Below, piece after piece: positions 4,159 to 63,267 of a DNA stretch of 64,000 nucleotides. A program made the position numbers and the translations under genes. The DNA comes from a virus (taxonomy: Duplodnaviria > Caudoviricetes): positions 32,001-96,000 of IMG/VR virus record IMGVR_UViG_3300033066_000778. The stretch is one strand, 5' to 3'. The stretch's first letter is position 1. Each line of letters begins with the position of its first letter. Under the pieces are notes generated by a model that did not search any database, was not told the DNA's origin, and was given only the letters and a program-made list of their open reading frames with translations.

Positions 4159-4732
4159 CGCCGACGCCTCCTATTGTCCCACCATTAGCATAGCCATTAG
4201 CGAAAATTGGAGGAAGACCGGGTGAAAGGTTTATGTTAGTTCCTGTTACAAGGGAGCCTCCAATTCCACCGGGGGAACCTCCTCCACCACCAGGAATGAT
4301 TCCTCCACCGCCTCCACCGACTGGATCAGGAATGCCTGGAGCTAATGCACCCGGAAACTGTGCTCCAGCGATACGACCCATAGCCGCTGTATTTACGGAG
4401 TTCACAAAGTCAGAAGCTGAGGGAATACCCGGAGGAGGCGGAATGGCCGGTGGTTGAGGGATCGAAATTCCTTGCCCAACAGAAGCTATAGCTTTATTTA
4501 GGATTGCATCACTGAACCCTGTTATATTGGGCGCGTTAGCAATCATGTTCGTAAAACCACCAGGACCAGACGCTAGAGCAGACAAGCCCGAGGGTAAAGA
4601 AGGGAATCCAGGTACACTTTGAAGTAACGTGAGCAAATTCCCCATCAGTCCCATCATTGCTGCTTGGGAAGTTTCAAGTGTTTTTAGTCTGGCGGCTGTT
4701 ACTTGTGTTTGGACGTTAAGGGCATTTCCCAT
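4151..4732 (-). CDS. Gly/Pro-rich hypothetical protein
   Basis: 193-aa ORF with low-complexity PPP/GGGG tracts, in baseplate operon. Confidence 0.55.
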   Translation of the reverse strand: MGNALNVQTQVTAARLKTLETSQAAMMGLMGNLLTLLQSVPGFPSLPSGLSALASGPGGFTNMIANAPNITGFSDAILNKAIASVGQGISIPQPPAIPPPPGIPSASDFVNSVNTAAMGRIAGAQFPGALAPGIPDPVGGGGGGIIPGGGGGSPGGIGGSLVTGTNINLSPGLPPIFANGYANGGTIGGVGGA

Positions 4733-4743
4733 CGTTACTATCC

Positions 4744-7266
4744 TTAGAGGATTTCAAATGGCGTTGTTACTGTTATTCCAGCAATTGCTACGGTTATAAC
4801 ACTAGCACCAACAGTTGTTGTTATCTCGGTTCCTGCAAAGTATTCTGATGTCGTAGTGGCACCTTCGGAAATCGTATTGGCCCTTAGAGAGATTTCGTCA
4901 GCCATAGCTGATAGATTGATGCTACTAGAAGTACTAGTCATATGAATATGGTTTTCTACGGTAATATCCCAGTAGTCTCCAACATCCATTGTGGCATACT
5001 GTGTATAGACTTCTCTAAGACGTTTTGACTTCATTTCAATCATGTCGTCAGCAGAGATAAACATACTTCCGTACGTATCTACGAATGCAGAAGAAGCATT
5101 TCCGAGTGAAGAGCCATGAGACTTCGTAACTACTCTTGTATTGGACATATAAAGGCCAAACAAGAAGGAATCACCACGCATATAGACGTAAGGTGATTTT
5201 ATATATGCTAGTTTTGCTGTTGCAGAACCAAGGGTAGTGTTTCCAGTTACTGAAATGTAATCAAAGTCTGCAATAGCGTAGTTTTGGACTTGAAGCTCTC
5301 CATTAACTTTTACTACTGAGCCTTTTACCAAGCTTTTATTAGCTGTTAAAGACTGTAGGCCACAGTAAGAAAGGTCAGTAATTGAAAGATCTTTTAGCTC
5401 TGTCGTTCCAACATCAGAGTCAGTAAGGAATGACGTTGAGCCTTTACTGGTGAAAACTTCAGATGTAATGAACTTTCCATTTAGTACACAACGAGTTATA
5501 TCAATTTCATTTACAGAGGTAATACCTTTTAGTTCAATATCATAGTTTCTGCCTAATAGTTTCGTATTAAGTGTGATAGGCCCTGTACAAGAGAAAAGAA
5601 AACTTCCCGTACTCTTGGTACTATAGAGTTCAATCTTTTCTCCAGTGATCTTTGCGTTAGTTCCTGCTCCGTTATTATCAATGATCAGGTCTGACTCATT
5701 GAGGTAAATACCCTTTTGACTTAAAATGTTCTGTGATGTCTTTACCTTGATTTTATTCCCTACTTTATTACACCTGATCGCGTATTCCTTACCTTCTAAA
5801 GTAGTGCAGTTTACAAGATTAACAACTGCGTTTGTGTCAATATCAATCCCGTTTCCTTGACTGTTAGTGGCTTTTGCACTTACAAGGTTTTTTACGGTTA
5901 ACTTTGAGAATGACCCAACTTTAAAAGCATGGGCACCTTCAATTTCTCTACTGTTAGTAATAAGAGCAAAGGAGTTATTCCCGACATAAATAGCTGCGTC
6001 GTCTGTAGTTCCACTATTTTCCATCTTGATATTGGAAACATATAGAACCTGGAGTCTAGCACCATTATTTGTTTTTACTGTTGTTTTATCTTTACTTGTG
6101 ATGTTAGTGATGTTAAGTAAGGTACAGATACTCTGGTCAAGTAAAATAGCTTCTTTTGACGAGCTACTTGTTTTCATGTCTTTTATGCTGTAAAAGTACA
6201 ACTTTGAGTTCTTCGTAGCGGATATTACAGAATCTGTATCATTGGTGATATTATCGAAAACCTTAGCAAAGATAGAAGAACTTTCAGCGTTAAAGGTTTC
6301 TTTAGCCTTAGTCTTTATCTTTGCTTGAGCTGACGCACCAATCATATCAAGATTTGATGAAACTAGTTTAAACGTTCCTTCTTGACTTTCAATTTCCTTA
6401 ATAGAAGTTAAAGAAACCTTAGACTTGTCTGCGGTAAAAAGTGTTCCACCTGTTACCGTGTTTTTATATGTTTCACCGTTAATGTAGATATCTGACGACG
6501 TAGCATCTACGAGTGTTTTATTCGCCTGAAGTGTCAAAGCTTTGTTTATTTTGATAACAGAATCTTTTGCCTTAATCAACGTTCCGACTGACTTGAAGTT
6601 CTGGACATTGAACGTTTCGAGCTTACTAGCTGAATTGATATCAAATAATGAGGTATCAGCTTTTTCGCCTTCTATCTTTGTAAAGTCCCATACCTCAGCA
6701 GTAGAATTCTTACTGAGGTAAACGAACGTAGCGTAGTTTTGAATCTTTATCGGATTAACAATAGAGATGAAACTGTTATTCTGACCCTTTACGGTGAACT
6801 CTTCCCATTTCCCCCACGTATCCTTAATGCTTTCTACACGGCTTTTAAGAACAAAAAGCCCTATCTTATTAAAAGAACCTGAAACAGAAGTCCAGTCAGA
6901 ATCTTTACTCTTTAGAAGAGATTTATTTTGAACGAATATTGACTGCTTAATCTTACACTTAATAAACTCAACCTTTGAGGAGTTGAACGTCACTTTAGAA
7001 GAAAACGTACACTCCTCAAAGATACAAGCTGAGTTTCTTAGGTTGAAGTTTGTAAAGTCCTTTTTGAAATCGCATTTGTAGAAGTAAAGGTTATTACTGT
7101 TTGTCTTAAGCGACTCAAAATTACATGAGTAAAACTGAACGTTTATATAGTCAGGAAGGGTGCAAGTTCCCTCGCACCCGTTTATCCTAATGGTAGCACT
7201 ACTGTTTGGTGGTGCCAAAAAGTAGTCTACTTGATCCTGAATTGACTTTTTTTGTTCAGTTGCCAT
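4744..7266 (-). CDS. Beta-helix tail spike-like protein with a gp5/VgrG-like C-terminal segment
   Basis: About 700 aa of ~22-residue parallel beta-helix-like repeats; C-terminus EITTTVGASVITVAIAGITV resembles VgrG/gp5 spike ends. Confidence 0.6.
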   Translation of the reverse strand: MATEQKKSIQDQVDYFLAPPNSSATIRINGCEGTCTLPDYINVQFYSCNFESLKTNSNNLYFYKCDFKKDFTNFNLRNSACIFEECTFSSKVTFNSSKVEFIKCKIKQSIFVQNKSLLKSKDSDWTSVSGSFNKIGLFVLKSRVESIKDTWGKWEEFTVKGQNNSFISIVNPIKIQNYATFVYLSKNSTAEVWDFTKIEGEKADTSLFDINSASKLETFNVQNFKSVGTLIKAKDSVIKINKALTLQANKTLVDATSSDIYINGETYKNTVTGGTLFTADKSKVSLTSIKEIESQEGTFKLVSSNLDMIGASAQAKIKTKAKETFNAESSSIFAKVFDNITNDTDSVISATKNSKLYFYSIKDMKTSSSSKEAILLDQSICTLLNITNITSKDKTTVKTNNGARLQVLYVSNIKMENSGTTDDAAIYVGNNSFALITNSREIEGAHAFKVGSFSKLTVKNLVSAKATNSQGNGIDIDTNAVVNLVNCTTLEGKEYAIRCNKVGNKIKVKTSQNILSQKGIYLNESDLIIDNNGAGTNAKITGEKIELYSTKSTGSFLFSCTGPITLNTKLLGRNYDIELKGITSVNEIDITRCVLNGKFITSEVFTSKGSTSFLTDSDVGTTELKDLSITDLSYCGLQSLTANKSLVKGSVVKVNGELQVQNYAIADFDYISVTGNTTLGSATAKLAYIKSPYVYMRGDSFLFGLYMSNTRVVTKSHGSSLGNASSAFVDTYGSMFISADDMIEMKSKRLREVYTQYATMDVGDYWDITVENHIHMTSTSSSINLSAMADEISLRANTISEGATTTSEYFAGTEITTTVGASVITVAIAGITVTTPFEIL

Positions 7267-31752: not shown

Positions 31753-32492
31753 TAAACGTACCTCGGAAATAGATCAGCCCTTGAAGACTGAATTTCATTA
31801 AGAAGGCGATTTTGCATTGAAGTAGCTTCGGCTACCATTGCATCTCCGTCCAAGTGCATGACTGTTCCAGCTACAGGGATTTTATCATATTTCCGTCTAG
31901 CTCTTCCGACGATTAACATTGCTTCGGTAAGAGCCCAATCCGATACCCATTTATGTGAATGAGGAGGAATTGACGTTAAATCATCTTTATGAGGAAACGT
32001 CAATTCCACATCAACAAAAAGCTGCTGAGATCCGTAAAGGTATAGTTTTAATCTAAACGTTTCTGGATCAATGACGTAAGCCCAATCAGGATCAGATGCT
32101 AGTTCACGCGAAACAGTCTTAATCCATCTACGGCGTAAGTCTAGATACTGTATATCCATATAAGTATCACCAACACCGTAATAGACAGGAACACCAGATA
32201 GTAATTGGGATTCAACAGCTAAACCAGAATTCATTCCTGGTTGGATACCAGGGGAAATCATTATGTCTTTAACACCAGTAGCACCTTCGGGACAAATGTG
32301 ATATGTCATACCGGCTAAAGGTGTAACAAAGTTTTCTTTCTTGGTAAAAGGTTTATACCGCGAGAAAACTTCAACTGTTCTCTTGATGGCTAGGTTAAGA
32401 CCGGCTTCGCCTATTTCGATAGGAACACCAACACCCGCCTCGCCACCAAGAGCTACTGGTAGTTCCTGTTTAAGAACTGTAGCATTAAACAT
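31752..32492 (-). CDS. Neck adaptor protein (T4 gp13-like)
   Basis: C-terminal WVSDWALTEAMLIVGRARRKYDKIP...HLDGDAMVAEA matches the gp13-type pattern. Confidence 0.8.
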   Translation of the reverse strand: MFNATVLKQELPVALGGEAGVGVPIEIGEAGLNLAIKRTVEVFSRYKPFTKKENFVTPLAGMTYHICPEGATGVKDIMISPGIQPGMNSGLAVESQLLSGVPVYYGVGDTYMDIQYLDLRRRWIKTVSRELASDPDWAYVIDPETFRLKLYLYGSQQLFVDVELTFPHKDDLTSIPPHSHKWVSDWALTEAMLIVGRARRKYDKIPVAGTVMHLDGDAMVAEATSMQNRLLNEIQSSRADLFPRYV

Positions 32493-54554: not shown

Positions 54555-57500
54555 TTAGGGCTTAATTGAGAATGGATTCAATTTATCAATATGTTCATTG
54601 AGGAGTTTAGTCTCTTCGTGTTCAGACGCGAAGTAACTATTTAGATCATCTTGTTTGTAAAGTGAATTTATGATTTTACTTGCAATATCAAGGTTTGCAG
54701 TATTAGGATGTTTTTTATTATCTGTTAGCATCGAATAAGAATTTGCTATTACTCCAGTTACCGCATCGGATATGTCTTTGCTTCCGGCACCCCCTGTAAA
54801 GTTTCTTACAGGGTGATCTACTTTAGCTTTCGCACCGGAATAATCATGAATAAGATTTAGTAATTCCATCTCTAAGATCTTGTTATATGGACACTTAACG
54901 TTATTCTTGTGTACAGCATCTCTGAATAAGACATAGGGAATATCGGTTCTATCCACCGATAGATTATCAACAGTAAAGTTGTCTTTAATCAACATCTGCA
55001 TTGGACCAGTAGAGAAGGCTTGGTCAAACGTAATAAGATGTATTTTAAACTTCATCTTCCGTAAGAAGCTAAAAAACTGCTGGATCTTTTCGTAGTCGAT
55101 CTGATCTCCTTGAGGAGCCTTGATTGCTATAGCAAAGTCAATGAAAAACTCTGGTGAATAGGAACTTATGATTTTATTTCCTAGTACGTTTGATCCGACA
55201 TTCTGCTTAATGTAAGCAACGCCACCCATTGCTATACCAGTACTATCACCACTTTTAGATAAGTCTACATGGATAGTTCTTAGCATATCTGGGTGGTACT
55301 TTGGTATTACTGCGAAACCAGCATCGAAAAAGAAATTGTTTTGTAGTACGTAACTGGAAATGCTTCTGTTTGTCCTAAGTCCAATTTCAATTTGATCCTC
55401 AAGGAATGGAGAATACCGTTCTCTATCCCAAAGGTTCTTAAGAAGCGTTGGATCATCAAACAACAGACTAGTTGGTGATGAAGAGATACCCGCAAGTTCT
55501 CTAAGGGCCGCATTTACATCGTGTTCAAAGTGACGACGGGTACTTTCTGGAACTTCAAGAATGTTAGGGCTACCTTCTGGGAAATCTTTCTCATCCTCTT
55601 CAGTAAGTATTCTGGATGATCTGGCAGAAGATCCAATGAATACCTTGAACGTCTTTCTGTTCATATCAAAGAAGTTATCCGGCTTAACGTCCCACTGAGA
55701 GTAAGAGGAGATGAAGGCATGACGATCTTGTCTAGCCACCCAACTACCTGTACGGTTAGAAAGCTGTCCATCCAAGGCTGCGATACGTGCTTCAAGGAAG
55801 TCTGACGATGTCTTTCTTGAAGAGATAACACAAAGTAACCCTGGCGTATAGGAGAGACGTTCGAAACGTGACGTGATACGATAACGAACTTGTTTGTATA
55901 GGTTTTCGGCTGAGTTCTCATCTTCGCCAGACTTAATCGTACGCTTACCTCGGAAATTCATTTCGTCCAAAATAGCCGAAACTACAGCGTAAGAAAGGGC
56001 GTGAGAGACTTTTGAACCAACTAGAATCTGTAAGCCTTGAGGTAGGATGATCTCATAGTCAGTCATATCTCGCATGTTACCAGAAGCAGCGTTATTCATT
56101 GCCTTTCTTATCTTGCGAGACTTCTTGATAGGAAATACGTTTTTGAAGTAAGGGCTTTCATTGATAATAGTCTTGAAGTCATCAGAGATAGCACCTTCAG
56201 CCTTATCAATAGAAAGAGAAAAAAGACCGAATGAGATCTTAGTAGCAGAGTCCAATGTGAAATACGCTTGAATATTACGAAGACAAGTAAGTACATGGAG
56301 CTTATACAATTGTGAAATAATAGCAATACGTGTATTATGAGATATAAACCCATTTGAAATATAGGAAGGGTCATCTTTTACTGTTAGATCATAGCAGTGT
56401 CCACGGCTAGTTTCTTTCGTAACTACAGTATCAAAGGTATACCGTTCTTTATAAATCTTCTTTAGTATCTCTGGAAGGTATTGTTCACCATATATTTCTA
56501 CTATTTTATCAAGAGCTTTATACGTGAATGCCTGTTTTCCTTTTGTTTTGACACAAACAAACATATCACGATTTTCTTTTAGCCCCAGTCCTTTACCACG
56601 GACTGCGTCTCTTACTTGGGAAACAATTTGCCAATCAATTGGGATTACTTCGTTGTCATTATGCCGCCAGGTAGTTGCTTCTCGTTCTAGTAATGCCTTT
56701 AACCGTTCAGCTTTCTTTGGATGTCTAAATCCTACCTCTTTTGCAAAGATCTCTTTAGACTCTCTACCAATTAACCGTACTGTCCAAGCACCTCTATACT
56801 TGTTACTCTTAAACTTTCTGGACGAGCGAATCCCAAAGTTAAGAAACAATAATTGAACTTGTTCCGCTAAATCCTTTGAACAAGTAGTAAATTCAATAGC
56901 ATTTCCTCGTTCATATACAGTTCCATCAGTATCAAATAAACCTCGGAGAAAGGCTCCTACAACCTCTTTAGTTCCCATACGAATAGCAATAGGTACTTTC
57001 TTCTCCCAAGATCTTCCTGATAGTCCAAGCTCTTTCCATTCCGCTATTAGTTTGGTTCCATTGAAGCTAACGCGGTGTACTATTTGTTTCGTATCTGCTC
57101 TCTGATACTTATGTGCATACATTTTAAGAGAGAGTCGTTCACCAAGAGTTATTACATGGCTTTGATATTTTTGTTCATCTTCGGCTGGTCCAAATGTTAG
57201 TTCAACTGTTGCTTCTTTTATACATCCATCACCAATAATAGCTCCCCAAAGTTCAGCTTGTTCTAACGAAATATTATAAGGGTTTTTACCCCATACATTA
57301 TTTTTGTAAGAAAGCAAAACTACATCATCTATTTCGATCTTTTCTGTTTCTTTCCATAAAATTTCTGTTCCATTAAATACTCTTAGTCTATGATTAGGTC
57401 GAGCCTCGATTTCATGTCCTAAAGATGTAAATAACTTAAATGTATCTGTCTCCCCTTCATCATGGAACTCTTCTACCTGCTTCAATCCAGACTCGGCAAG

Positions 57501-58046
57501 GACGGCATTTATTTCATTGCGCTTAGCATAAACTTCGTCAATACGTAAAACGCCTAAGTCCGTTAGAATGAATGAATTACAAGTACATTTCCCAACGCCA
57601 ATTCCTCCGCTCAAAACCCATTCGTGTATCTCATTCTTAGGGTCTAATACAAAGATAAGATCCTTTCTCCATGGAGCATAAATCCTAGTAGACATCTCTT
57701 CGCCTAGGTATTTAGGATCATTTACGAATTCTTCTGGCGTTGCAGGAGTACGAAACCAATCGGCTTCTCTTAATGCTTTGATAGCTTGAAGTTCATTGGT
57801 TCCTGAGATCGTTGCTTCTACTATTGTATTAGTAATGATCCCACGTTCTGCTGGAGTGAAAGCTTCCCAGTCAATTTCTCCTTTAGCACAACGGTCAACG
57901 AAAGCTTTCGCTGCATTTGGATTCCGTCTAAGAAGAATTTCAACTTCTGTTTTTTCAAGTTCCGGTAAAAAGAATGGGAATTTTTCTAGGTCAACCTGTT
58001 GGTCATCCTCTAGATTACTCTTCGTTGTCATCATTTGACGCTTCAC
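54555..58046 (-). CDS. Terminase large subunit containing an intein
   Basis: Walker A SGGIGVGK|T, Walker B AILDEMNF, nuclease HVDLSKSGDSTG and KDISDAVTG; true start may be the ATG at 58034. Confidence 0.92.
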   Translation of the reverse strand: MKRQMMTTKSNLEDDQQVDLEKFPFFLPELEKTEVEILLRRNPNAAKAFVDRCAKGEIDWEAFTPAERGIITNTIVEATISGTNELQAIKALREADWFRTPATPEEFVNDPKYLGEEMSTRIYAPWRKDLIFVLDPKNEIHEWVLSGGIGVGKCTCNSFILTDLGVLRIDEVYAKRNEINAVLAESGLKQVEEFHDEGETDTFKLFTSLGHEIEARPNHRLRVFNGTEILWKETEKIEIDDVVLLSYKNNVWGKNPYNISLEQAELWGAIIGDGCIKEATVELTFGPAEDEQKYQSHVITLGERLSLKMYAHKYQRADTKQIVHRVSFNGTKLIAEWKELGLSGRSWEKKVPIAIRMGTKEVVGAFLRGLFDTDGTVYERGNAIEFTTCSKDLAEQVQLLFLNFGIRSSRKFKSNKYRGAWTVRLIGRESKEIFAKEVGFRHPKKAERLKALLEREATTWRHNDNEVIPIDWQIVSQVRDAVRGKGLGLKENRDMFVCVKTKGKQAFTYKALDKIVEIYGEQYLPEILKKIYKERYTFDTVVTKETSRGHCYDLTVKDDPSYISNGFISHNTRIAIISQLYKLHVLTCLRNIQAYFTLDSATKISFGLFSLSIDKAEGAISDDFKTIINESPYFKNVFPIKKSRKIRKAMNNAASGNMRDMTDYEIILPQGLQILVGSKVSHALSYAVVSAILDEMNFRGKRTIKSGEDENSAENLYKQVRYRITSRFERLSYTPGLLCVISSRKTSSDFLEARIAALDGQLSNRTGSWVARQDRHAFISSYSQWDVKPDNFFDMNRKTFKVFIGSSARSSRILTEEDEKDFPEGSPNILEVPESTRRHFEHDVNAALRELAGISSSPTSLLFDDPTLLKNLWDRERYSPFLEDQIEIGLRTNRSISSYVLQNNFFFDAGFAVIPKYHPDMLRTIHVDLSKSGDSTGIAMGGVAYIKQNVGSNVLGNKIISSYSPEFFIDFAIAIKAPQGDQIDYEKIQQFFSFLRKMKFKIHLITFDQAFSTGPMQMLIKDNFTVDNLSVDRTDIPYVLFRDAVHKNNVKCPYNKILEMELLNLIHDYSGAKAKVDHPVRNFTGGAGSKDISDAVTGVIANSYSMLTDNKKHPNTANLDIASKIINSLYKQDDLNSYFASEHEETKLLNEHIDKLNPFSIKP
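56334..57587 (-). mobile_element. Intein with LAGLIDADG endonuclease in terminase Walker A (418 aa)
   Basis: Begins CTCNSFILTDLG, block B RPNHRL, WGAIIGDG and FLRGLFDTDG, ends CYDLTV...YISNGFISHN before Thr. Confidence 0.95.
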
Positions 58047-60389: not shown

Positions 60390-61013
60390 ATGACAGAAAT
60401 TACAGAAGAGTTTATTGCATCTCTTATAGGTCTTCCGTATAAAAGTAAAATATGCGTAACATGTAAGCAATGTAAAAAAGAAATTTACAGAACAAAACAT
60501 GCTATCCTTCGTCGTTACTGGGCAAAAGCTAAGTTGATCTTCTGTGGGGCGACTTGCTACGGGTTATTTAACGATAAACGTATTGTACGTACTTGCGTGA
60601 ACTGCCAGAACAAAACATTTACTCGTTTTTGCTCCCAGTCTTGTTCGGCTATATATAATAATATGCATAAGAAAACTGGGCATCGTCGCGCAAAGTTAGA
60701 AATCGCTATTGAAAAAAAACTTTTAGAAGCGGGCGTTACCTTTGTATGTAATGACCGAAAAACTGTTGGGTATGAACTTGATTTTTTCTTTCCTACCTTA
60801 CGTAAGGCAATTGAAATAAACGGTATTTATCATTACAAGCCAGTACATTCGGAGGCTAAATTCAAGCGTATACAAGAGATAGATAATGAAAAGATACAAC
60901 GCTGTGAGAAAGCTAATATTCAATTACTAGTAAAGCCAAATTTATATATTCGTTTTACTCCAGAAATAATAGAAAAAACTTGGACAGAGATAAAAGAATT
61001 CCTAGATAGATAA
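60390..61013 (+). CDS. Free-standing endonuclease (Zn-ribbons plus Vsr/PD-(D/E)xK-like domain)
   Basis: CKQC...FCGATC, CVNC...FCSQSC, YELDFFFP...AIEINGIYHY...DNEK; the only credible plus-strand gene. Confidence 0.75.
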   Translation: MTEITEEFIASLIGLPYKSKICVTCKQCKKEIYRTKHAILRRYWAKAKLIFCGATCYGLFNDKRIVRTCVNCQNKTFTRFCSQSCSAIYNNMHKKTGHRRAKLEIAIEKKLLEAGVTFVCNDRKTVGYELDFFFPTLRKAIEINGIYHYKPVHSEAKFKRIQEIDNEKIQRCEKANIQLLVKPNLYIRFTPEIIEKTWTEIKEFLDR

Positions 61014-61021
61014 AAACTTCC

Positions 61022-61084
61022 GTAAGCGGAATAGACTCTTTTAATTTCATGTGATTTTATTTTACTGTTATCTATTCCGCTTAC
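61022..61084. other. 14-bp inverted repeat / hairpin at distal end of tRNA array
   Basis: GTAAGCGGAATAGA (61022-61035) / TCTATTCCGCTTAC (61071-61084), 35-nt AT-rich loop. Confidence 0.75.
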
Positions 61085-61098
61085 CACTCAATTAAAAT

Positions 61099-61183
61099 TG
61101 GTGGGACTGACGCGGTTCGAACGCGTACGACTTTCGTCACGATTTTTTGAGAATCGCGTGTATTCCGATTCCACCACAGTCCC
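61099..61183 (-). tRNA. tRNA-Leu(CAA)
   Basis: GGGACTG/CAGTCCC acceptor, CGATT-CTCAAAA-AATCG, long V arm, GTTCGAAC T-loop, ACCA. Confidence 0.92.
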
Positions 61184-61184
61184 A

Positions 61185-61259
61185 TGGAGCGTGTAACAGG
61201 ATTTGAACCCGTAACCTACAGCTTGGAAGGCTGAGACTCTACCATTGAGTTATACACGC
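61185..61259 (-). tRNA. tRNA-Gly(TCC)
   Basis: GCGTGTA/TACACGC acceptor, loop CTTCCAA, TCCA end. Confidence 0.93.
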
Positions 61260-61269
61260 ATTATAGTTG

Positions 61270-61458
61270 AATGACGATCAGCTAGTACAATACCTGCAAG
61301 GGCGGAATGCCCCAGACGTATAATATTACGTTACCATGCTCAAACATCACTAACGAAACCAACTAATTCCGGCATAATTATATGCTTAGGCGGCATAGGA
61401 ATCACCCTACTTCGTCGTATCCGCCTCATGTACTATCCGGTGATTAACCGGCACGTAT
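61270..61458 (-). ncRNA. Unidentified ~190-nt multistem structured RNA
   Basis: Nested stems TAGTACA/TGTACTA, AGGCGG/CCGCCT, GTAGG/CCTAT, GCATA/TATGC, CGGAAT/ATTCCG, ACGTA/TACGT and a CCGGT/ACCGG hairpin; no ORF; ends approximate. Confidence 0.55.
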
Positions 61459-61466
61459 TAAGATAT

Positions 61467-61555
61467 TGGTAAGAGTGGGTGGGGTCGAACCACCATATAC
61501 CTTGTAAGGGCATCCAGCTTATAAGGCTGGGGCTATACCATTTAGCTACACTCTT
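61467..61555 (-). tRNA. tRNA with anticodon TAT (nominally Ile) and long variable arm
   Basis: AAGAGTG/CACTCTT, CCAGC-CTTATAA-GCTGG, 19-nt V region ATGCC-CTTACAA-GGTAT-AT, GGTGG-TTCGACC-CCACC, ACCA. Confidence 0.88.
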
Positions 61556-61566
61556 ATAATTGAAAA

Positions 61567-61643
61567 TGGCGGGTATGAGGAGATTTGAACTCCCGTTCTC
61601 TGACGTGACAGGCCAGCGCTTTTGACCGCTAAGCTACACACCC
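61567..61643 (-). tRNA. tRNA-Asp(GTC)
   Basis: Loop CTGTCAC, G73, CCA. Confidence 0.93.
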
Positions 61644-61651
61644 GTAAGTAA

Positions 61652-61734
61652 TGGACTAGGTAGGGTTACTGGCAGTACTTGCTCCCTACTCCTCAAAGTC
61701 TGAGTGACCGCGATCATTGAAATCTACTAGTCCA
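61652..61734 (-). ncRNA. tRNA-sized, non-tRNA branched RNA
   Basis: GGACTAG/CTAGTCC-A closing stem stacked on GTAGGG/CCCTAC; internal CTCA/TGAG hairpin; no T-loop or anticodon loop. Confidence 0.55.
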
Positions 61735-61738
61735 AAAT

Positions 61739-61814
61739 TGGCTGGAGCGGAAGGATTCGAACCTTCATTAGCTGGGTCAGAGCCAGCGTTCCTGACCAAT
61801 TGAAAGACGCCCCA
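61739..61814 (-). tRNA. tRNA-Gln(CTG)
   Basis: TGGGGCG/CGCTCCA, GCTGG-CTCTGAC-CCAGC, GCCA. Confidence 0.93.
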
Positions 61815-61817
61815 ATA

Positions 61818-62045
61818 TTACCTTGCTATGTCTTTACCCTTTTCATAGATTGAAATTCCGTCGTTACAGTTACGAGTAGGGCACTTAACTATCATACTTC
61901 TTAACCTACCGTTGAAGTACATTACTTGTGTTAATGAAAGTGCTTCTTCCTCGTCTAGTTCTACTTCACACTTACAGTTATAGCATTTTCCTGCGTAAAT
62001 AACGTTGACTTTTTTTGGGAGAATGCCTTCTTTAATTATTCGCAT
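61818..62045 (-). CDS. Small Cys-rich hypothetical protein
   Basis: MRIIKEG...CYNCKC...CPTRNC. Confidence 0.6.
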   Translation of the reverse strand: MRIIKEGILPKKVNVIYAGKCYNCKCEVELDEEEALSLTQVMYFNGRLRSMIVKCPTRNCNDGISIYEKGKDIAR

Positions 62046-62217
62046 TTCTTTTTCCTACTGCGCCAGAAAGCCACAGTCCAAAGTTCCATGCACCAAACAT
62101 TGCGAATAATGTATGAACGATGTCAACAGCAATCATAGCCATGGTATAGTTTAGGAGAGTAAGAATGAGTATTGAATACATCAAAATAATTACAACGTAA
62201 ACTTTTTTATCAGTCAT
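62032..62217 (-). CDS. Small membrane protein
   Basis: Two hydrophobic segments in 61 aa. Confidence 0.5.
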   Translation of the reverse strand: MTDKKVYVVIILMYSILILTLLNYTMAMIAVDIVHTLFAMFGAWNFGLWLSGAVGKRNANN

Positions 62218-62252
62218 GGTTTTTTTACTATTCCTTACAACAAATACAAAGT

Positions 62253-62342
62253 TGGTGAAGCGAGTATGATTCGAACATACGATGGGGTTATTAGTCCTAC
62301 GGGGTTACAGCCCGTTTCCTTCAGCCACTCGGACATCGCTTC
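62253..62342 (-). tRNA. tRNA-Tyr(GTA)
   Basis: GAAGCGA/TCGCTTC, ACGGG-CTGTAAC-CCCGT, long V arm, ACCA. Confidence 0.92.
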
Positions 62343-62375
62343 GTTATATTAAAATGGCGGGAGAACGAAAATCTT

Positions 62376-62936
62376 CTACTGAGAATTTTCTAATTGTAAT
62401 AGCTGGTAAATAGCGTAATTACTTTCTATTTTATGCCTACGCCTATGACAATTAGAGCACCGAACGTCACACTTAGCAATTTCTTTTTCTACTAATTCCC
62501 AAGTACAGTTATTTTTGGCCATACTGGAAATGTTGTACTCTTTATTTCCTTGATGATCAAATTCTAAGACTAAAGGATCTTTCTCTCCACAGTCAACACA
62601 AAAGTGTGTTTTAAAGTAAGCCAAGATATTTTTGTAAATTAAAAATTTACGATTATTACTGTAGAGCTTAGCCCTATCAATATATTTAGCTTGATTACGC
62701 TTATAGTGTATATTACCCGCTGCGTTTTGACAAGTCTTGCACACATTTTGTATACGCCCAGACTTACTATCTTTTAAGTTAAAAAATGCCCTGTCAAAGT
62801 AGCCTTTACAAGCTAAACAGATTATTTTACCATCTTCTCTTATCCTTGATGCTCGGCGCTTTTTGCTATTACATTCTCTGCAAGACTGTGCTCTTTTACT
62901 TTTTTCTTTAGTGCATATCGGACATATATTATTCAT
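62376..62936 (-). CDS. HNH endonuclease within tRNA array
   Basis: CVDCGEKDPLVLEFDH...IAKCDVRCSNCHRRRH, plus N-terminal CxxC pairs. Confidence 0.85.
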   Translation of the reverse strand: MNNICPICTKEKSKRAQSCRECNSKKRRASRIREDGKIICLACKGYFDRAFFNLKDSKSGRIQNVCKTCQNAAGNIHYKRNQAKYIDRAKLYSNNRKFLIYKNILAYFKTHFCVDCGEKDPLVLEFDHQGNKEYNISSMAKNNCTWELVEKEIAKCDVRCSNCHRRRHKIESNYAIYQLLQLENSQ

Positions 62937-62943
62937 ACAAAAT

Positions 62944-62972
62944 AATGTACACTAAAAAAAGCAAAATGTCAA
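62944..62972 (-). promoter_or_regulatory. Sigma70-type promoter giving a probably leaderless HNH transcript
   Basis: TTGACA (62972-62967), 17 nt, TACATT (62949-62944), 7 nt, ATG (62936). Confidence 0.65.
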
Positions 62973-63012
62973 GGCAGTCTCTAAAATCATATAAAGTTTT
63001 AGAGACTGCCTT
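62971..63012. other. 16-bp perfect hairpin downstream of tRNA-Asn
   Basis: AAGGCAGTCTCTAAAA / TTTTAGAGACTGCCTT, 10-nt loop. Confidence 0.75.
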
Positions 63013-63019
63013 TCTAATA

Positions 63020-63094
63020 TGGCTCGGTTGGTAGGAATTGAACCTACGACAGTTCGATTAACAGTCGAACACTCTACCACTGAGTTACAACCGA
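63020..63094 (-). tRNA. tRNA-Asn(GTT)
   Basis: TCGGTTG/CAACCGA, TTCGA-CTGTTAA-TCGAA, GCCA. Confidence 0.93.
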
Positions 63095-63102
63095 ATGAAA
63101 CT

Positions 63103-63177
63103 TGGAGCACTGAAGTCGATTCGAACGACTGAATAGCAGGGTTGCAATCTGCCCTCTTACCACTTGAGTATCAGTGC
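63103..63177 (-). tRNA. tRNA-Cys(GCA)
   Basis: GCACTGA/TCAGTGC, loop TTGCAAC, U73, CCA. Confidence 0.92.
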
Positions 63178-63188
63178 GTTATTTGAAA

Positions 63189-63267
63189 TGGGACCGGGAA
63201 CTGGATTTGAACCAGTGATCTCTAGCTTATGAGGCTAGCGTGGTAGACCAGACTGCACCATCCCGGT
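63189..63267 (-). tRNA. tRNA with anticodon CAT (elongator Met or Ile2)
   Basis: ACCGGGA/TCCCGGT, CTAGC-CTCATAA-GCTAG; lacks initiator GGG/CCC pairs; discriminator C. Confidence 0.88.

Follow-up and report, generated by a model that had tools for sequence, protein, structure and literature searches.

The tRNA(UAU) gene and its surroundings

The window analyzed here is a stretch of 64,000 nt (positions 32,001 to 96,000) of the IMG/VR virus record IMGVR_UViG_3300033066_000778, which is 153,958 bp long and an estimated 83% complete. It holds a cluster of nine tRNA genes, the only tRNAs that ARAGORN finds in the 154-kb record, and one of these, with the anticodon UAU, carries an additional arm in its variable region (Table 1). 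The phage, which has a T4-type portal and a tail sheath, is a divergent myovirus. Terminases of cultured phages share only about 29% identity with that of the phage, whose relatives by terminase amount to a single short related contig, which has no tRNAs. The phage is also rich in HNH and intein insertions. Three essential-looking genes contain mobile insertions: the terminase gene (window 54555-58046(-), 1163 aa) with an endonuclease segment inside, the DNA polymerase gene (L315:12549-16082(-), 1177 aa) with an HNH segment inside, and the C1A cysteine protease gene (L317:612-2453(-)), whose Hint and LAGLIDADG domains indicate an intein.

Table 1. Features of the tRNA(UAU) gene and its neighborhood (window coordinates).
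Feature	Position	Strand	Basis
tRNA(UAU) gene, 89 nt including encoded CCA (61467-61469) and discriminator A73 (61470)	61467..61555	-	ARAGORN, Rfam, family model
Anticodon loop CUUAUAA, with anticodon UAU at 61521-61523, A37 and A38	61519..61525	-	U33-A38 invariant in 46 family sequences
Class I type D arm: 4-bp stem GCUA/UAGC, 7-nt loop AAUGGUA with A14, A15, G18, G19	61532..61546	-	Fold; 13:22 covaries
C26, opposite A44 (61513)	61531..61531	-	Invariant, 46/46 family sequences
Extra variable-region arm: stem 61509-61513 / 61497-61501, 7-nt loop CUUACAA at 61502-61508, then A and U48 at 61495-61496	61495..61513	-	Fold, family motif, 14-nt insertion relative to class I tRNA-Ile(UAU)
Nine co-oriented tRNA genes: Leu CAA, Gly UCC, UAU, Asp GUC, Gln CUG, Tyr GUA, Asn GUU, Cys GCA, CAU	61099..63267	-	ARAGORN
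Terminator-like hairpin with a T run, directly following the cluster's last tRNA	61018..61031	-	Consensus match only
HNH/homing endonuclease gene flanking the tRNA cluster	60390..61013	+	PHROG matches
Second HNH/homing endonuclease gene, interrupting the tRNA cluster	62376-62936	-	PHROG matches

ARAGORN calls the gene as tRNA-Ile(tat), and the Rfam tRNA model (RF00005) matches it over model positions 1-71 with 62 bits (E=2.8e-12), which exceeds the curated threshold (gathering score 29); the alignment accommodates 16 additional nt as a variable-region insertion. Any other RNA family was set aside as the identity of the gene, since tRNA is the sole Rfam match at E ≤ 1. The minimum free energy fold (−27.9 kcal/mol, z=−2.4) gives the same five-arm structure as the ARAGORN drawing, with a 7-bp acceptor stem (A1-U72, then A2-U71, through to G7-C66), an anticodon arm CCAGC-CUUAUAA-GCUGG with the standard CUUAUAA loop, an extra hairpin AUGCC-CUUACAA-GGUAU (5 bp, 7-nt loop) followed by AU, and a T arm GGUGG-UUCGACC-CCACC with a 5-bp stem that leads into A73 and the encoded CCA. 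Both bases of the tertiary pair A15:U48 are present, U48 being the base that precedes the T stem.

Each item in the structural list of an earlier, sequence-only reading of this locus (a 7/5 cloverleaf, the TAT anticodon, A37, A15:U48 and A73) is present according to ARAGORN and the minimum free energy fold, and its remark that the 4-bp D stem resembles class I is borne out by a D arm of class I with a covarying 13:22 pair and without A20a. Two of its structural descriptions stand in part. The molecule was described as a class II tRNA with a long variable arm; the long arm is there, but unlike a generic class II arm it is a module of conserved sequence, carried by a class I body of the Ile type. 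Similarly, the 5-bp stem that had been described is fully paired in the window tRNA, but only its inner three pairs are conserved across relatives.

Within the cluster, the spacer of about 207 nt between tRNA-Gly and tRNA(UAU) (61260-61466) lacks any ORF of at least 50 aa, and neither ARAGORN nor Rfam (at E ≤ 1) reports anything in it; the tRNA(CAU) at 63189-63267(-) has an enlarged D loop and, in the Rfam alignment, a C at the discriminator position where A73 is expected. The phage record encodes neither a class Ia synthetase nor TilS, so the tRNA(UAU) must depend on host enzymes. A phage-encoded partner for the tRNA was rejected as a candidate for the same reason, the only recurrent neighbor of the family members described below being an HNH endonuclease.

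A family of tRNAs with the same arm

Neither megablast nor blastn, run with the tRNA cluster and with the tRNA against 50,697 phage records, gave a match for the tRNA(UAU), and the cultured phages of INPHARED held no full-length match to it. Two other members of the family gave 5'-half matches to tRNA-Arg genes only, or nothing, against INPHARED, and an exact 36-mer of the tRNA had no match in IMG/VR. Relatives were collected by sequence patterns instead, since the similarity searches were empty. In phage contigs, the anticodon-arm pattern alone yielded 13 genes that were called as class I tRNA-Ile(UAU), and a pattern in which the UAU loop and the T loop had to lie far apart yielded 104 loci. 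On the loci collected by pattern, ARAGORN called 95 long-armed tRNA(UAU) genes of two arm types, the majority having a GAU-containing arm loop and the window tRNA belonging to the second type, R-CC-CUNRCAA-GG-Y. With two further scans this second type reached 46 distinct sequences, from uncultured phage contigs and from Lachnospiraceae tRNA arrays, and it is defined in the present analysis as the CUNRCAA-type extra-arm tRNA(UAU) family.

The window tRNA has all the marks of this family (C26, A44, the R.Y wobble pair, the two C-G pairs, the CUNRCAA loop, UAU, A73 and a class I D arm). The family model (R1), whose seed includes the sequence, scores it at 88.4 bits, against 33-44 bits for the other tRNAs of the genome. 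The gene is a genuine tRNA and a member of a conserved family.

A sample of 116 phage loci that had not been selected for UAU contained 20 distinct tRNA(UAU) genes. Ten of these have the GAU arm, nine are class I, one has another long arm with a GAU-containing loop and none has the CUNRCAA arm, which indicates that the CUNRCAA type is rarer than the GAU-loop type.

Sixteen loci of the scan come from bacterial or archaeal genomes. Among these are the genomes of two isolates, Lachnospiraceae bacterium AC2031 and NE2001, in which the gene lies within arrays of at least 20 tRNA genes. All three Lachnospiraceae genomes tested carry TilS, so the extra-arm tRNA(UAU) is not the only route to reading AUA there, and the idea that it serves as the sole AUA decoder was rejected for these three genomes. 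The same arrays contain other unusually built members: five of them (L161, L163, L167, L170 and L171) also have a 74-76-nt tRNA-Leu(UAA) without a long variable arm and 70-71-nt tRNA-Cys genes. In L173 (Eubacterium ruminantium ATCC 17233, about 1315-1420) and L165 (about 4715-4820), family copies keep their sequence as far as the T loop (GGTTCGA), beyond which they run into unrelated sequence; ARAGORN does not call them, and they look like truncated copies produced by recombination at the 3' end of the tRNA.

In about 14 loci (L074, L122, L129, L133, L134, L140, L144, L147, L149, L155, L156, L305 and others), HNH genes of a single cluster (Pfam HNH_3) lie about 10-30 nt from an extra-arm tRNA(UAU) or overlap it. 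This recurrent adjacency suggests that the endonuclease and the tRNA move together.

Conservation and covariation

The acceptor, D, anticodon and T stems covary strongly across the 46 distinct sequences. In the family alignment 89% of the paired cells hold a pair, compared with 63% in shuffles, and the covariation score of 0.705 compares with 0.18 for shuffled alignments, was reached by none of 500 shuffles and falls to about 0.1 when the pairing partners are slid. Double changes are found at all seven acceptor pairs, at five anticodon-stem pairs and at three of the five T-stem pairs, the other two T-stem pairs being invariant G-C. The D-stem pair 13:22 alternates between C-G (26 sequences), U-A (13) and A-U (6), and the Levitt pair 15:48 covaries as well, being A:U in 33 sequences and G:C in 7. 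U12-A23 is kept in 45 of the 46 sequences, the window tRNA among them. Invariant throughout are U33 to A38, which includes the UAU anticodon, together with A73, C26 and A44.

The extra arm follows a different pattern, in that its sequence itself is conserved. Two C-G pairs and the loop bases C-A-A are invariant in the 46 sequences; in the loop C-U-N-R-C-A-A the third position is free and the fourth is a purine (A in 34 sequences, G in 12). GAU occurs in the arm loop of none of the family sequences, the window loop being CUUACAA, and a reading of the arm as a spare or mimicked GAU anticodon for IleRS therefore fails for this family. The third arm pair is G.U in 28 sequences and A.C in 13, with a Watson-Crick pair in only 4, and the fourth position is mostly G opposite A, so that the window tRNA is the only one of the 46 with a U-A pair there. 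As the exchange between G.U and A.C preserves wobble geometry, selection would act on the RNA and not on a DNA site, and the conservation of the extra arm points to selection at the RNA level.

Origin of the tRNA body and portability of the arm

The body of the tRNA was placed by comparison with tRNAs that lack the arm. L235, a 77-nt class I tRNA-Ile(UAU) of another phage contig, aligns to the family over its full length with a single 14-nt gap exactly at the arm, and it has a D arm identical to that of L135, an arm-bearing family member, with C26 and A44 common to both. When the 5' halves (positions 1-31) are compared with those of about 2,000 other phage tRNAs, the nearest are CAU, Ile-GAU, Lys-UUU, class I Ile-UAU and Val-UAC tRNAs, and Leu, Ser and Tyr tRNAs are the farthest. 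Judged by these similarities, the body is that of a class I Ile-type tRNA with a hairpin inserted in its variable loop.

The arm also occurs on other tRNAs. A scan for the arm at the variable position with any anticodon, whose hits were read by eye, returned about 36 UAU, 4 Asn(GUU) and 3 CAU tRNAs. The arm-bearing tRNA-Asn keeps GUU and G73, and the arm-bearing UAU and CAU tRNAs keep A73; the discriminator thus tracks the anticodon and not the arm, which argues that the arm does not set amino-acid identity. A CAU tRNA (L277:2060-2149(-)) and an Asn(GUU) tRNA (L313, near 2168-2198) on different contigs have nearly the same body and the same extra arm and differ in anticodon and discriminator (A73 vs. 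G73), an apparent switch of anticodon and identity on one scaffold.

The loop of the arm has itself the look of an anticodon loop. The 11-mer CCCUNRCAAGG forms the true anticodon arm of 70 tRNA-Val(UAC) and 31 tRNA-Ala(UGC) genes in phage contigs, and a specific mimicry of Val or Ala anticodon arms was considered on this account. However, when tRNAs were sampled without regard to the motif, the CC-CU...AA-GG context proved to be generic, being shared by tRNAs for Glu, Arg, Gly and others and by only 3 of 41 Val/Ala tRNAs, and an N-R-C loop is Val/Ala-like by definition; we therefore downgraded this candidate and do not claim specific mimicry. Among near-identical Lachnospiraceae copies the central triplet of the arm is AAC, GAC or AGC, and a triplet that differs in this way is neither a working anticodon nor a signal for ValRS.

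Meaning of AUA in the phage

AUA is a common codon in this phage, accounting for 608 of 2,799 isoleucine codons (21.7%) and 1.41% of all codons in the genome. ORFs of 470, 434, 367, 358 and 325 aa (genome 65258-66670 and 125850-130450) contain no AUA codon at all, which fits an avoidance of AUA in highly expressed genes.

The amino acid that the phage genes expect at AUA was assessed by collecting the residues of distant homologues (at most 60% identity) that align to each codon class in four proteins: DNA polymerase (149 homologues), terminase (18), the C1A protease (24) and SbcC (29). The homologues were taken from large protein databases because a tblastn of the phage ORFs against the collected loci gave too few. 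At 52 AUA sites the homologues have I at a frequency of 0.35, L at 0.16 and V at 0.15, nearly the profile of the 166 AUU/AUC sites (I 0.34, V 0.17, L 0.17); in the comparison classes, Leu sites have L at 0.41 and Val sites have V at 0.31. With summed log-likelihoods and bootstrapping, isoleucine is preferred at the AUA sites over leucine (p=5e-5), valine (p=0.0014), methionine and serine, and when 29 genuine sites for Ile, Leu or Val were drawn as controls, the right class was recovered 500 times out of 500. The AUA sites therefore behave like AUU/AUC sites, and the phage genes expect isoleucine at AUA. This test speaks to the meaning of AUA in the genes and not to the cargo of the tRNA, as host tRNA-Ile2 could decode all AUA codons. 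Were leucine, valine or serine put in at AUA, about one codon in 70 would be mistranslated.

Identity elements and charging

The E. coli identity sets for IleRS, LeuRS and SerRS (PMC9976931) were compared with the tRNA(UAU). For isoleucine, A73, A35, U36, A37 (the t6A site) and A38 are present and invariant in the 46 sequences, and U12-A23 is present; G34 or lysidine-34 is absent, U34 standing in its place, and the minor determinants C4-G69 and C29-G41, which are known for E. coli only, are replaced by A4-U69 and A29-U41. For leucine, A73, A15:U48 and G18G19 are present, but tRNAs for Ile, Val and Met also have A73 and G18G19. A20a is missing, the 7-nt D loop having only U20 and A21 after G19, and so is a D arm of class II. 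The serine elements G73, G1-C72 and G2-C71 are absent (A73, A1-U72 and A2-U71 are found), which leaves only the long arm, and for tyrosine A73 is present while U35 of GUA is absent, the anticodon being UAU with A35.

The Leu-like identity features named in the sequence-only reading are real in that A73 and A15:U48 are present, but they do not single out leucine: 15:48 is G:C in seven relatives, A20a is missing and the body is least like those of Leu, Ser and Tyr tRNAs. Of the two functions it had put forward, a TilS-independent decoder of AUA fits the data, given the Ile-type class I body, the UAU, A37, A38 and A73 invariant in the 46 sequences and the AUA sites that behave as isoleucine sites. 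The other, a missense tRNA inserting leucine at AUA, is not supported, and it is taken up below.

Class I synthetases approach the tRNA with the variable region facing the solvent, and IleRS should for this reason tolerate the extra arm. According to PMC3575796, a tRNA with UAU is a poor substrate for the IleRS of E. coli and misreads AUG on the ribosomes of that species, while the IleRS of Mycoplasma mobile charges a UAU tRNA well. Function in the host of the phage is therefore not guaranteed and would depend on that host; poor charging and AUG misreading would be plausible pressures for an added element.

Function of the tRNA and of its extra arm

Taken together, the gene probably encodes an elongator tRNA that works in translation, decodes AUA and receives isoleucine from the host IleRS. 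We infer the charging with isoleucine, and the tRNA would supplement the lysidine-dependent tRNA-Ile2 of the host in a phage in which more than a fifth of the isoleucine codons are AUA. Its structure is that of a class I tRNA-Ile(UAU) plus a 14-nt hairpin in the variable loop. The hairpin appears anticodon-arm-like, with C-G closing pairs and a 7-nt C-U-N-R-C-A-A loop that would form a U-N-R turn, on top of a conserved pair of wobble geometry, and it seems to travel with the tRNA as a module.

For the role of the arm we can offer a best guess. A conserved hairpin that resembles an anticodon arm, with a U-N-R turn and a basal wobble pair, is likely to be a docking or stiffening element, and the arm may thus improve a UAU tRNA as a docking or rigidifying element while leaving the amino acid unchanged. 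It could aid charging by an IleRS that reads UAU poorly, or it could aid the rejection of AUG. A bolder version, which we put forward tentatively and hold to be possible rather than probable, is that the hairpin represents a novel sort of tRNA element that the classical identity sets do not cover, a docking module that is portable and sequence-specific, added by phages and mobile arrays to tRNAs for codons that start with A (mostly UAU, but also CAU and GUU tRNAs) and read by a partner, with the GAU-loop arm being a second solution to the same problem. Candidate partners would be a domain of IleRS or AsnRS, an enzyme that modifies position 34 or 37, or a protein of defense or counter-defense.

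It is unlikely that the tRNA is an Ile/AUA decoder with a functionless arm, whether a tolerated insertion spread by gene conversion of a homing endonuclease or one that protects the gene from an endonuclease. Such an origin would sit well with the HNH genes of one cluster next to the tRNA in about 14 loci, with the wealth of HNH and intein insertions in the phage, and with the established solvent-facing position of the variable region in class I synthetase complexes, where an arm is tolerable. However, the rest of the tRNA has diverged to saturation, every acceptor pair having changed, while the arm has stayed fixed; constraints typical of an RNA and not of a DNA site show in the G.U/A.C exchange and in the freedom of the third loop base; and the HNH genes of the window itself fall outside the recurrent HNH cluster.

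Rather more doubtful is a tRNA-shaped molecule that takes no part in translation and uses its arm to bind a protein of the host or the phage; it could, for instance, act as a decoy against a defense that targets tRNAs, or be the partner of a protein of RNA surveillance. The arm is indeed conserved in sequence, as protein-binding sites are. Against this, the 7/5 stack, T loop, G18G19, Levitt pair, anticodon loop and A73 are all kept or covary, and CCA is often encoded; the only Rfam matches at E ≤ 1 are to tRNA, the neighbors are ordinary tRNAs, and AUA is frequent in the genome.

The identity of the tRNA could also be redirected by the arm, with SerRS accepting the long arm or ValRS reading its N-A-C "anticodon," so that serine or valine is inserted at AUA. 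We consider this very unlikely, even though SerRS depends chiefly on the long arm and takes no account of the anticodon (PMC9976931), allo-tRNAs with UAU exist (PMC5389517), and the arm loop of the window tRNA has A-C at the positions equivalent to an anticodon, ValRS using A35, C36 and A73. A73 is invariant in the family while bacterial tRNA-Ser has G73, and the first two acceptor pairs are A1-U72 and A2-U71 instead of the conserved G1-C72 and G2-C71. The "35" position of the arm is G and not A in 12 of 46 sequences, and it changes among the near-identical Lachnospiraceae copies (AAC, GAC, AGC). The tRNA-Asn with the same arm keeps G73 and GUU, and the AUA sites reject serine outright and valine at the p value given above.

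Charging by LeuRS, with leucine inserted at AUA in the manner of the nematode nev-tRNA-Ile(UAU), is in our estimation highly improbable. It would draw on A73, A15:U48, G18G19 and the long arm, on the indifference of E. coli LeuRS to the anticodon and the arm (PMC9976931), and on the finding that nev-tRNA-Ile(UAU) is charged only with leucine in vitro (PMC3333845). The body, on the other hand, is least similar to Leu tRNAs, with a 4-bp D stem, a covarying 13:22 pair, a 7-nt D loop, no A20a and G15:C48 in seven relatives; removing 14 nt from the molecule gives the class I tRNA-Ile(UAU); and the AUA sites reject leucine, and 608 AUA codons would be mistranslated.

That the second hairpin is the real anticodon arm of a Val/Ala decoder, with the UAU hairpin as the extra one, is scarcely credible and was rejected: for all its anticodon-like 7-nt loop and its 11-mer identical to those Val and Ala anticodon arms, only three of its stem pairs are conserved (one of them a wobble pair), its context is generic and shared by 3 of 41 Val/Ala tRNAs in the unselected sample, its triplet is free (A first in 22 of 46, with a Val/Ala switch in near-identical copies) against an invariant UAU, and the extra hairpin would then fall between positions 26 and 27.

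Relation to known tRNAs

Reading AUA without misreading AUG is a classic problem, which is known to be solved by lysidine, by agmatidine or by adapting both IleRS and the ribosome. Widespread tRNA(UAU) genes of phages and mobile arrays with a conserved extra hairpin bear on this problem, and the intact copies in the cultured isolates AC2031 and NE2001, both of which have TilS, make the role of the arm directly testable. They also matter for annotation, as the genes are labeled tRNA-Ile by the anticodon alone while their length suggests class II, and isotype predictors may disagree. In the full-text literature on allo-tRNAs, non-canonical tRNAs, nev-tRNAs, M. mobile, tRNA arrays and tRNA identity we found no 7/5 tRNA(UAU) with such an arm, which makes it an apparently undescribed variant of extra-arm tRNA(UAU).

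The closest known molecules are the class I tRNA-Ile(UAU) of phages (L002-L017, L235) and the tRNA-Ile2(UAU) of M. mobile (PMC3575796). They share with the family UAU, the CUUAUAA loop, A37/A38, A73 and a class I D arm, and neither kind needs lysidine, but they are without the conserved 14-nt hairpin in the variable loop. The M. mobile tRNA is in addition paired with an adapted IleRS (Arg865) and an adapted ribosome. The GAU-loop extra-arm tRNA(UAU) (L021-L123), which likewise did not turn up in the literature, resembles the family in combining UAU with a further variable-region hairpin whose loop has 7 nt, in residing mostly in phage tRNA clusters and in often encoding CCA. Its loop is Y-A-G-A-U-N-A where that of the CUNRCAA family is C-U-N-R-C-A-A, and the latter family is marked by C26.A44 and the wobble pair.

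Nematode nev-tRNA-Ile(UAU) (PMC3333845) likewise combines a long extra arm with UAU and A73, but the nev-tRNAs are derived from tRNA-Leu and are charged with leucine, whereas the phage tRNA has a body that is of class I Ile type and is least Leu-like. A 90-nt tRNA on a Woesearchaeota MAG contig (L169:1882-1971(-)), with UAU and a class II D arm of the Leu type, is nev-tRNA-like and lies outside the CUNRCAA family. The (8/4) and (9/3) allo-tRNAs (PMC5389517) have a long arm with an anticodon other than those of Ser, Leu or Tyr, UAU is one of their predominant anticodons and some occur in phages; they differ in their 8/4 or 9/3 stack and Ser-type identity from the phage tRNA with its 7/5 stack, A73 and class I D arm. 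With the canonical class II tRNAs (Leu, Ser and bacterial Tyr) the phage tRNA shares a stem-loop in the variable region and an overall length of 85-90 nt, but these have 3-bp D stems, larger D loops and variable arm sequences in contrast to its class I D arm and conserved arm.

Other long-armed tRNAs are common in phage contigs. Many tRNAs of 82-99 nt with long variable arms have anticodons for Thr (UGU), Lys (UUU), Trp (CCA), Cys (GCA), His (GUG) or Asn (GUU), often with a short stem, a GNRA-like loop and a Ser/Tyr-like D arm; examples are L024:5873-5958, L091:11611-11695, L211:12379-12463, L235:4719-4807 and L086:520-605.
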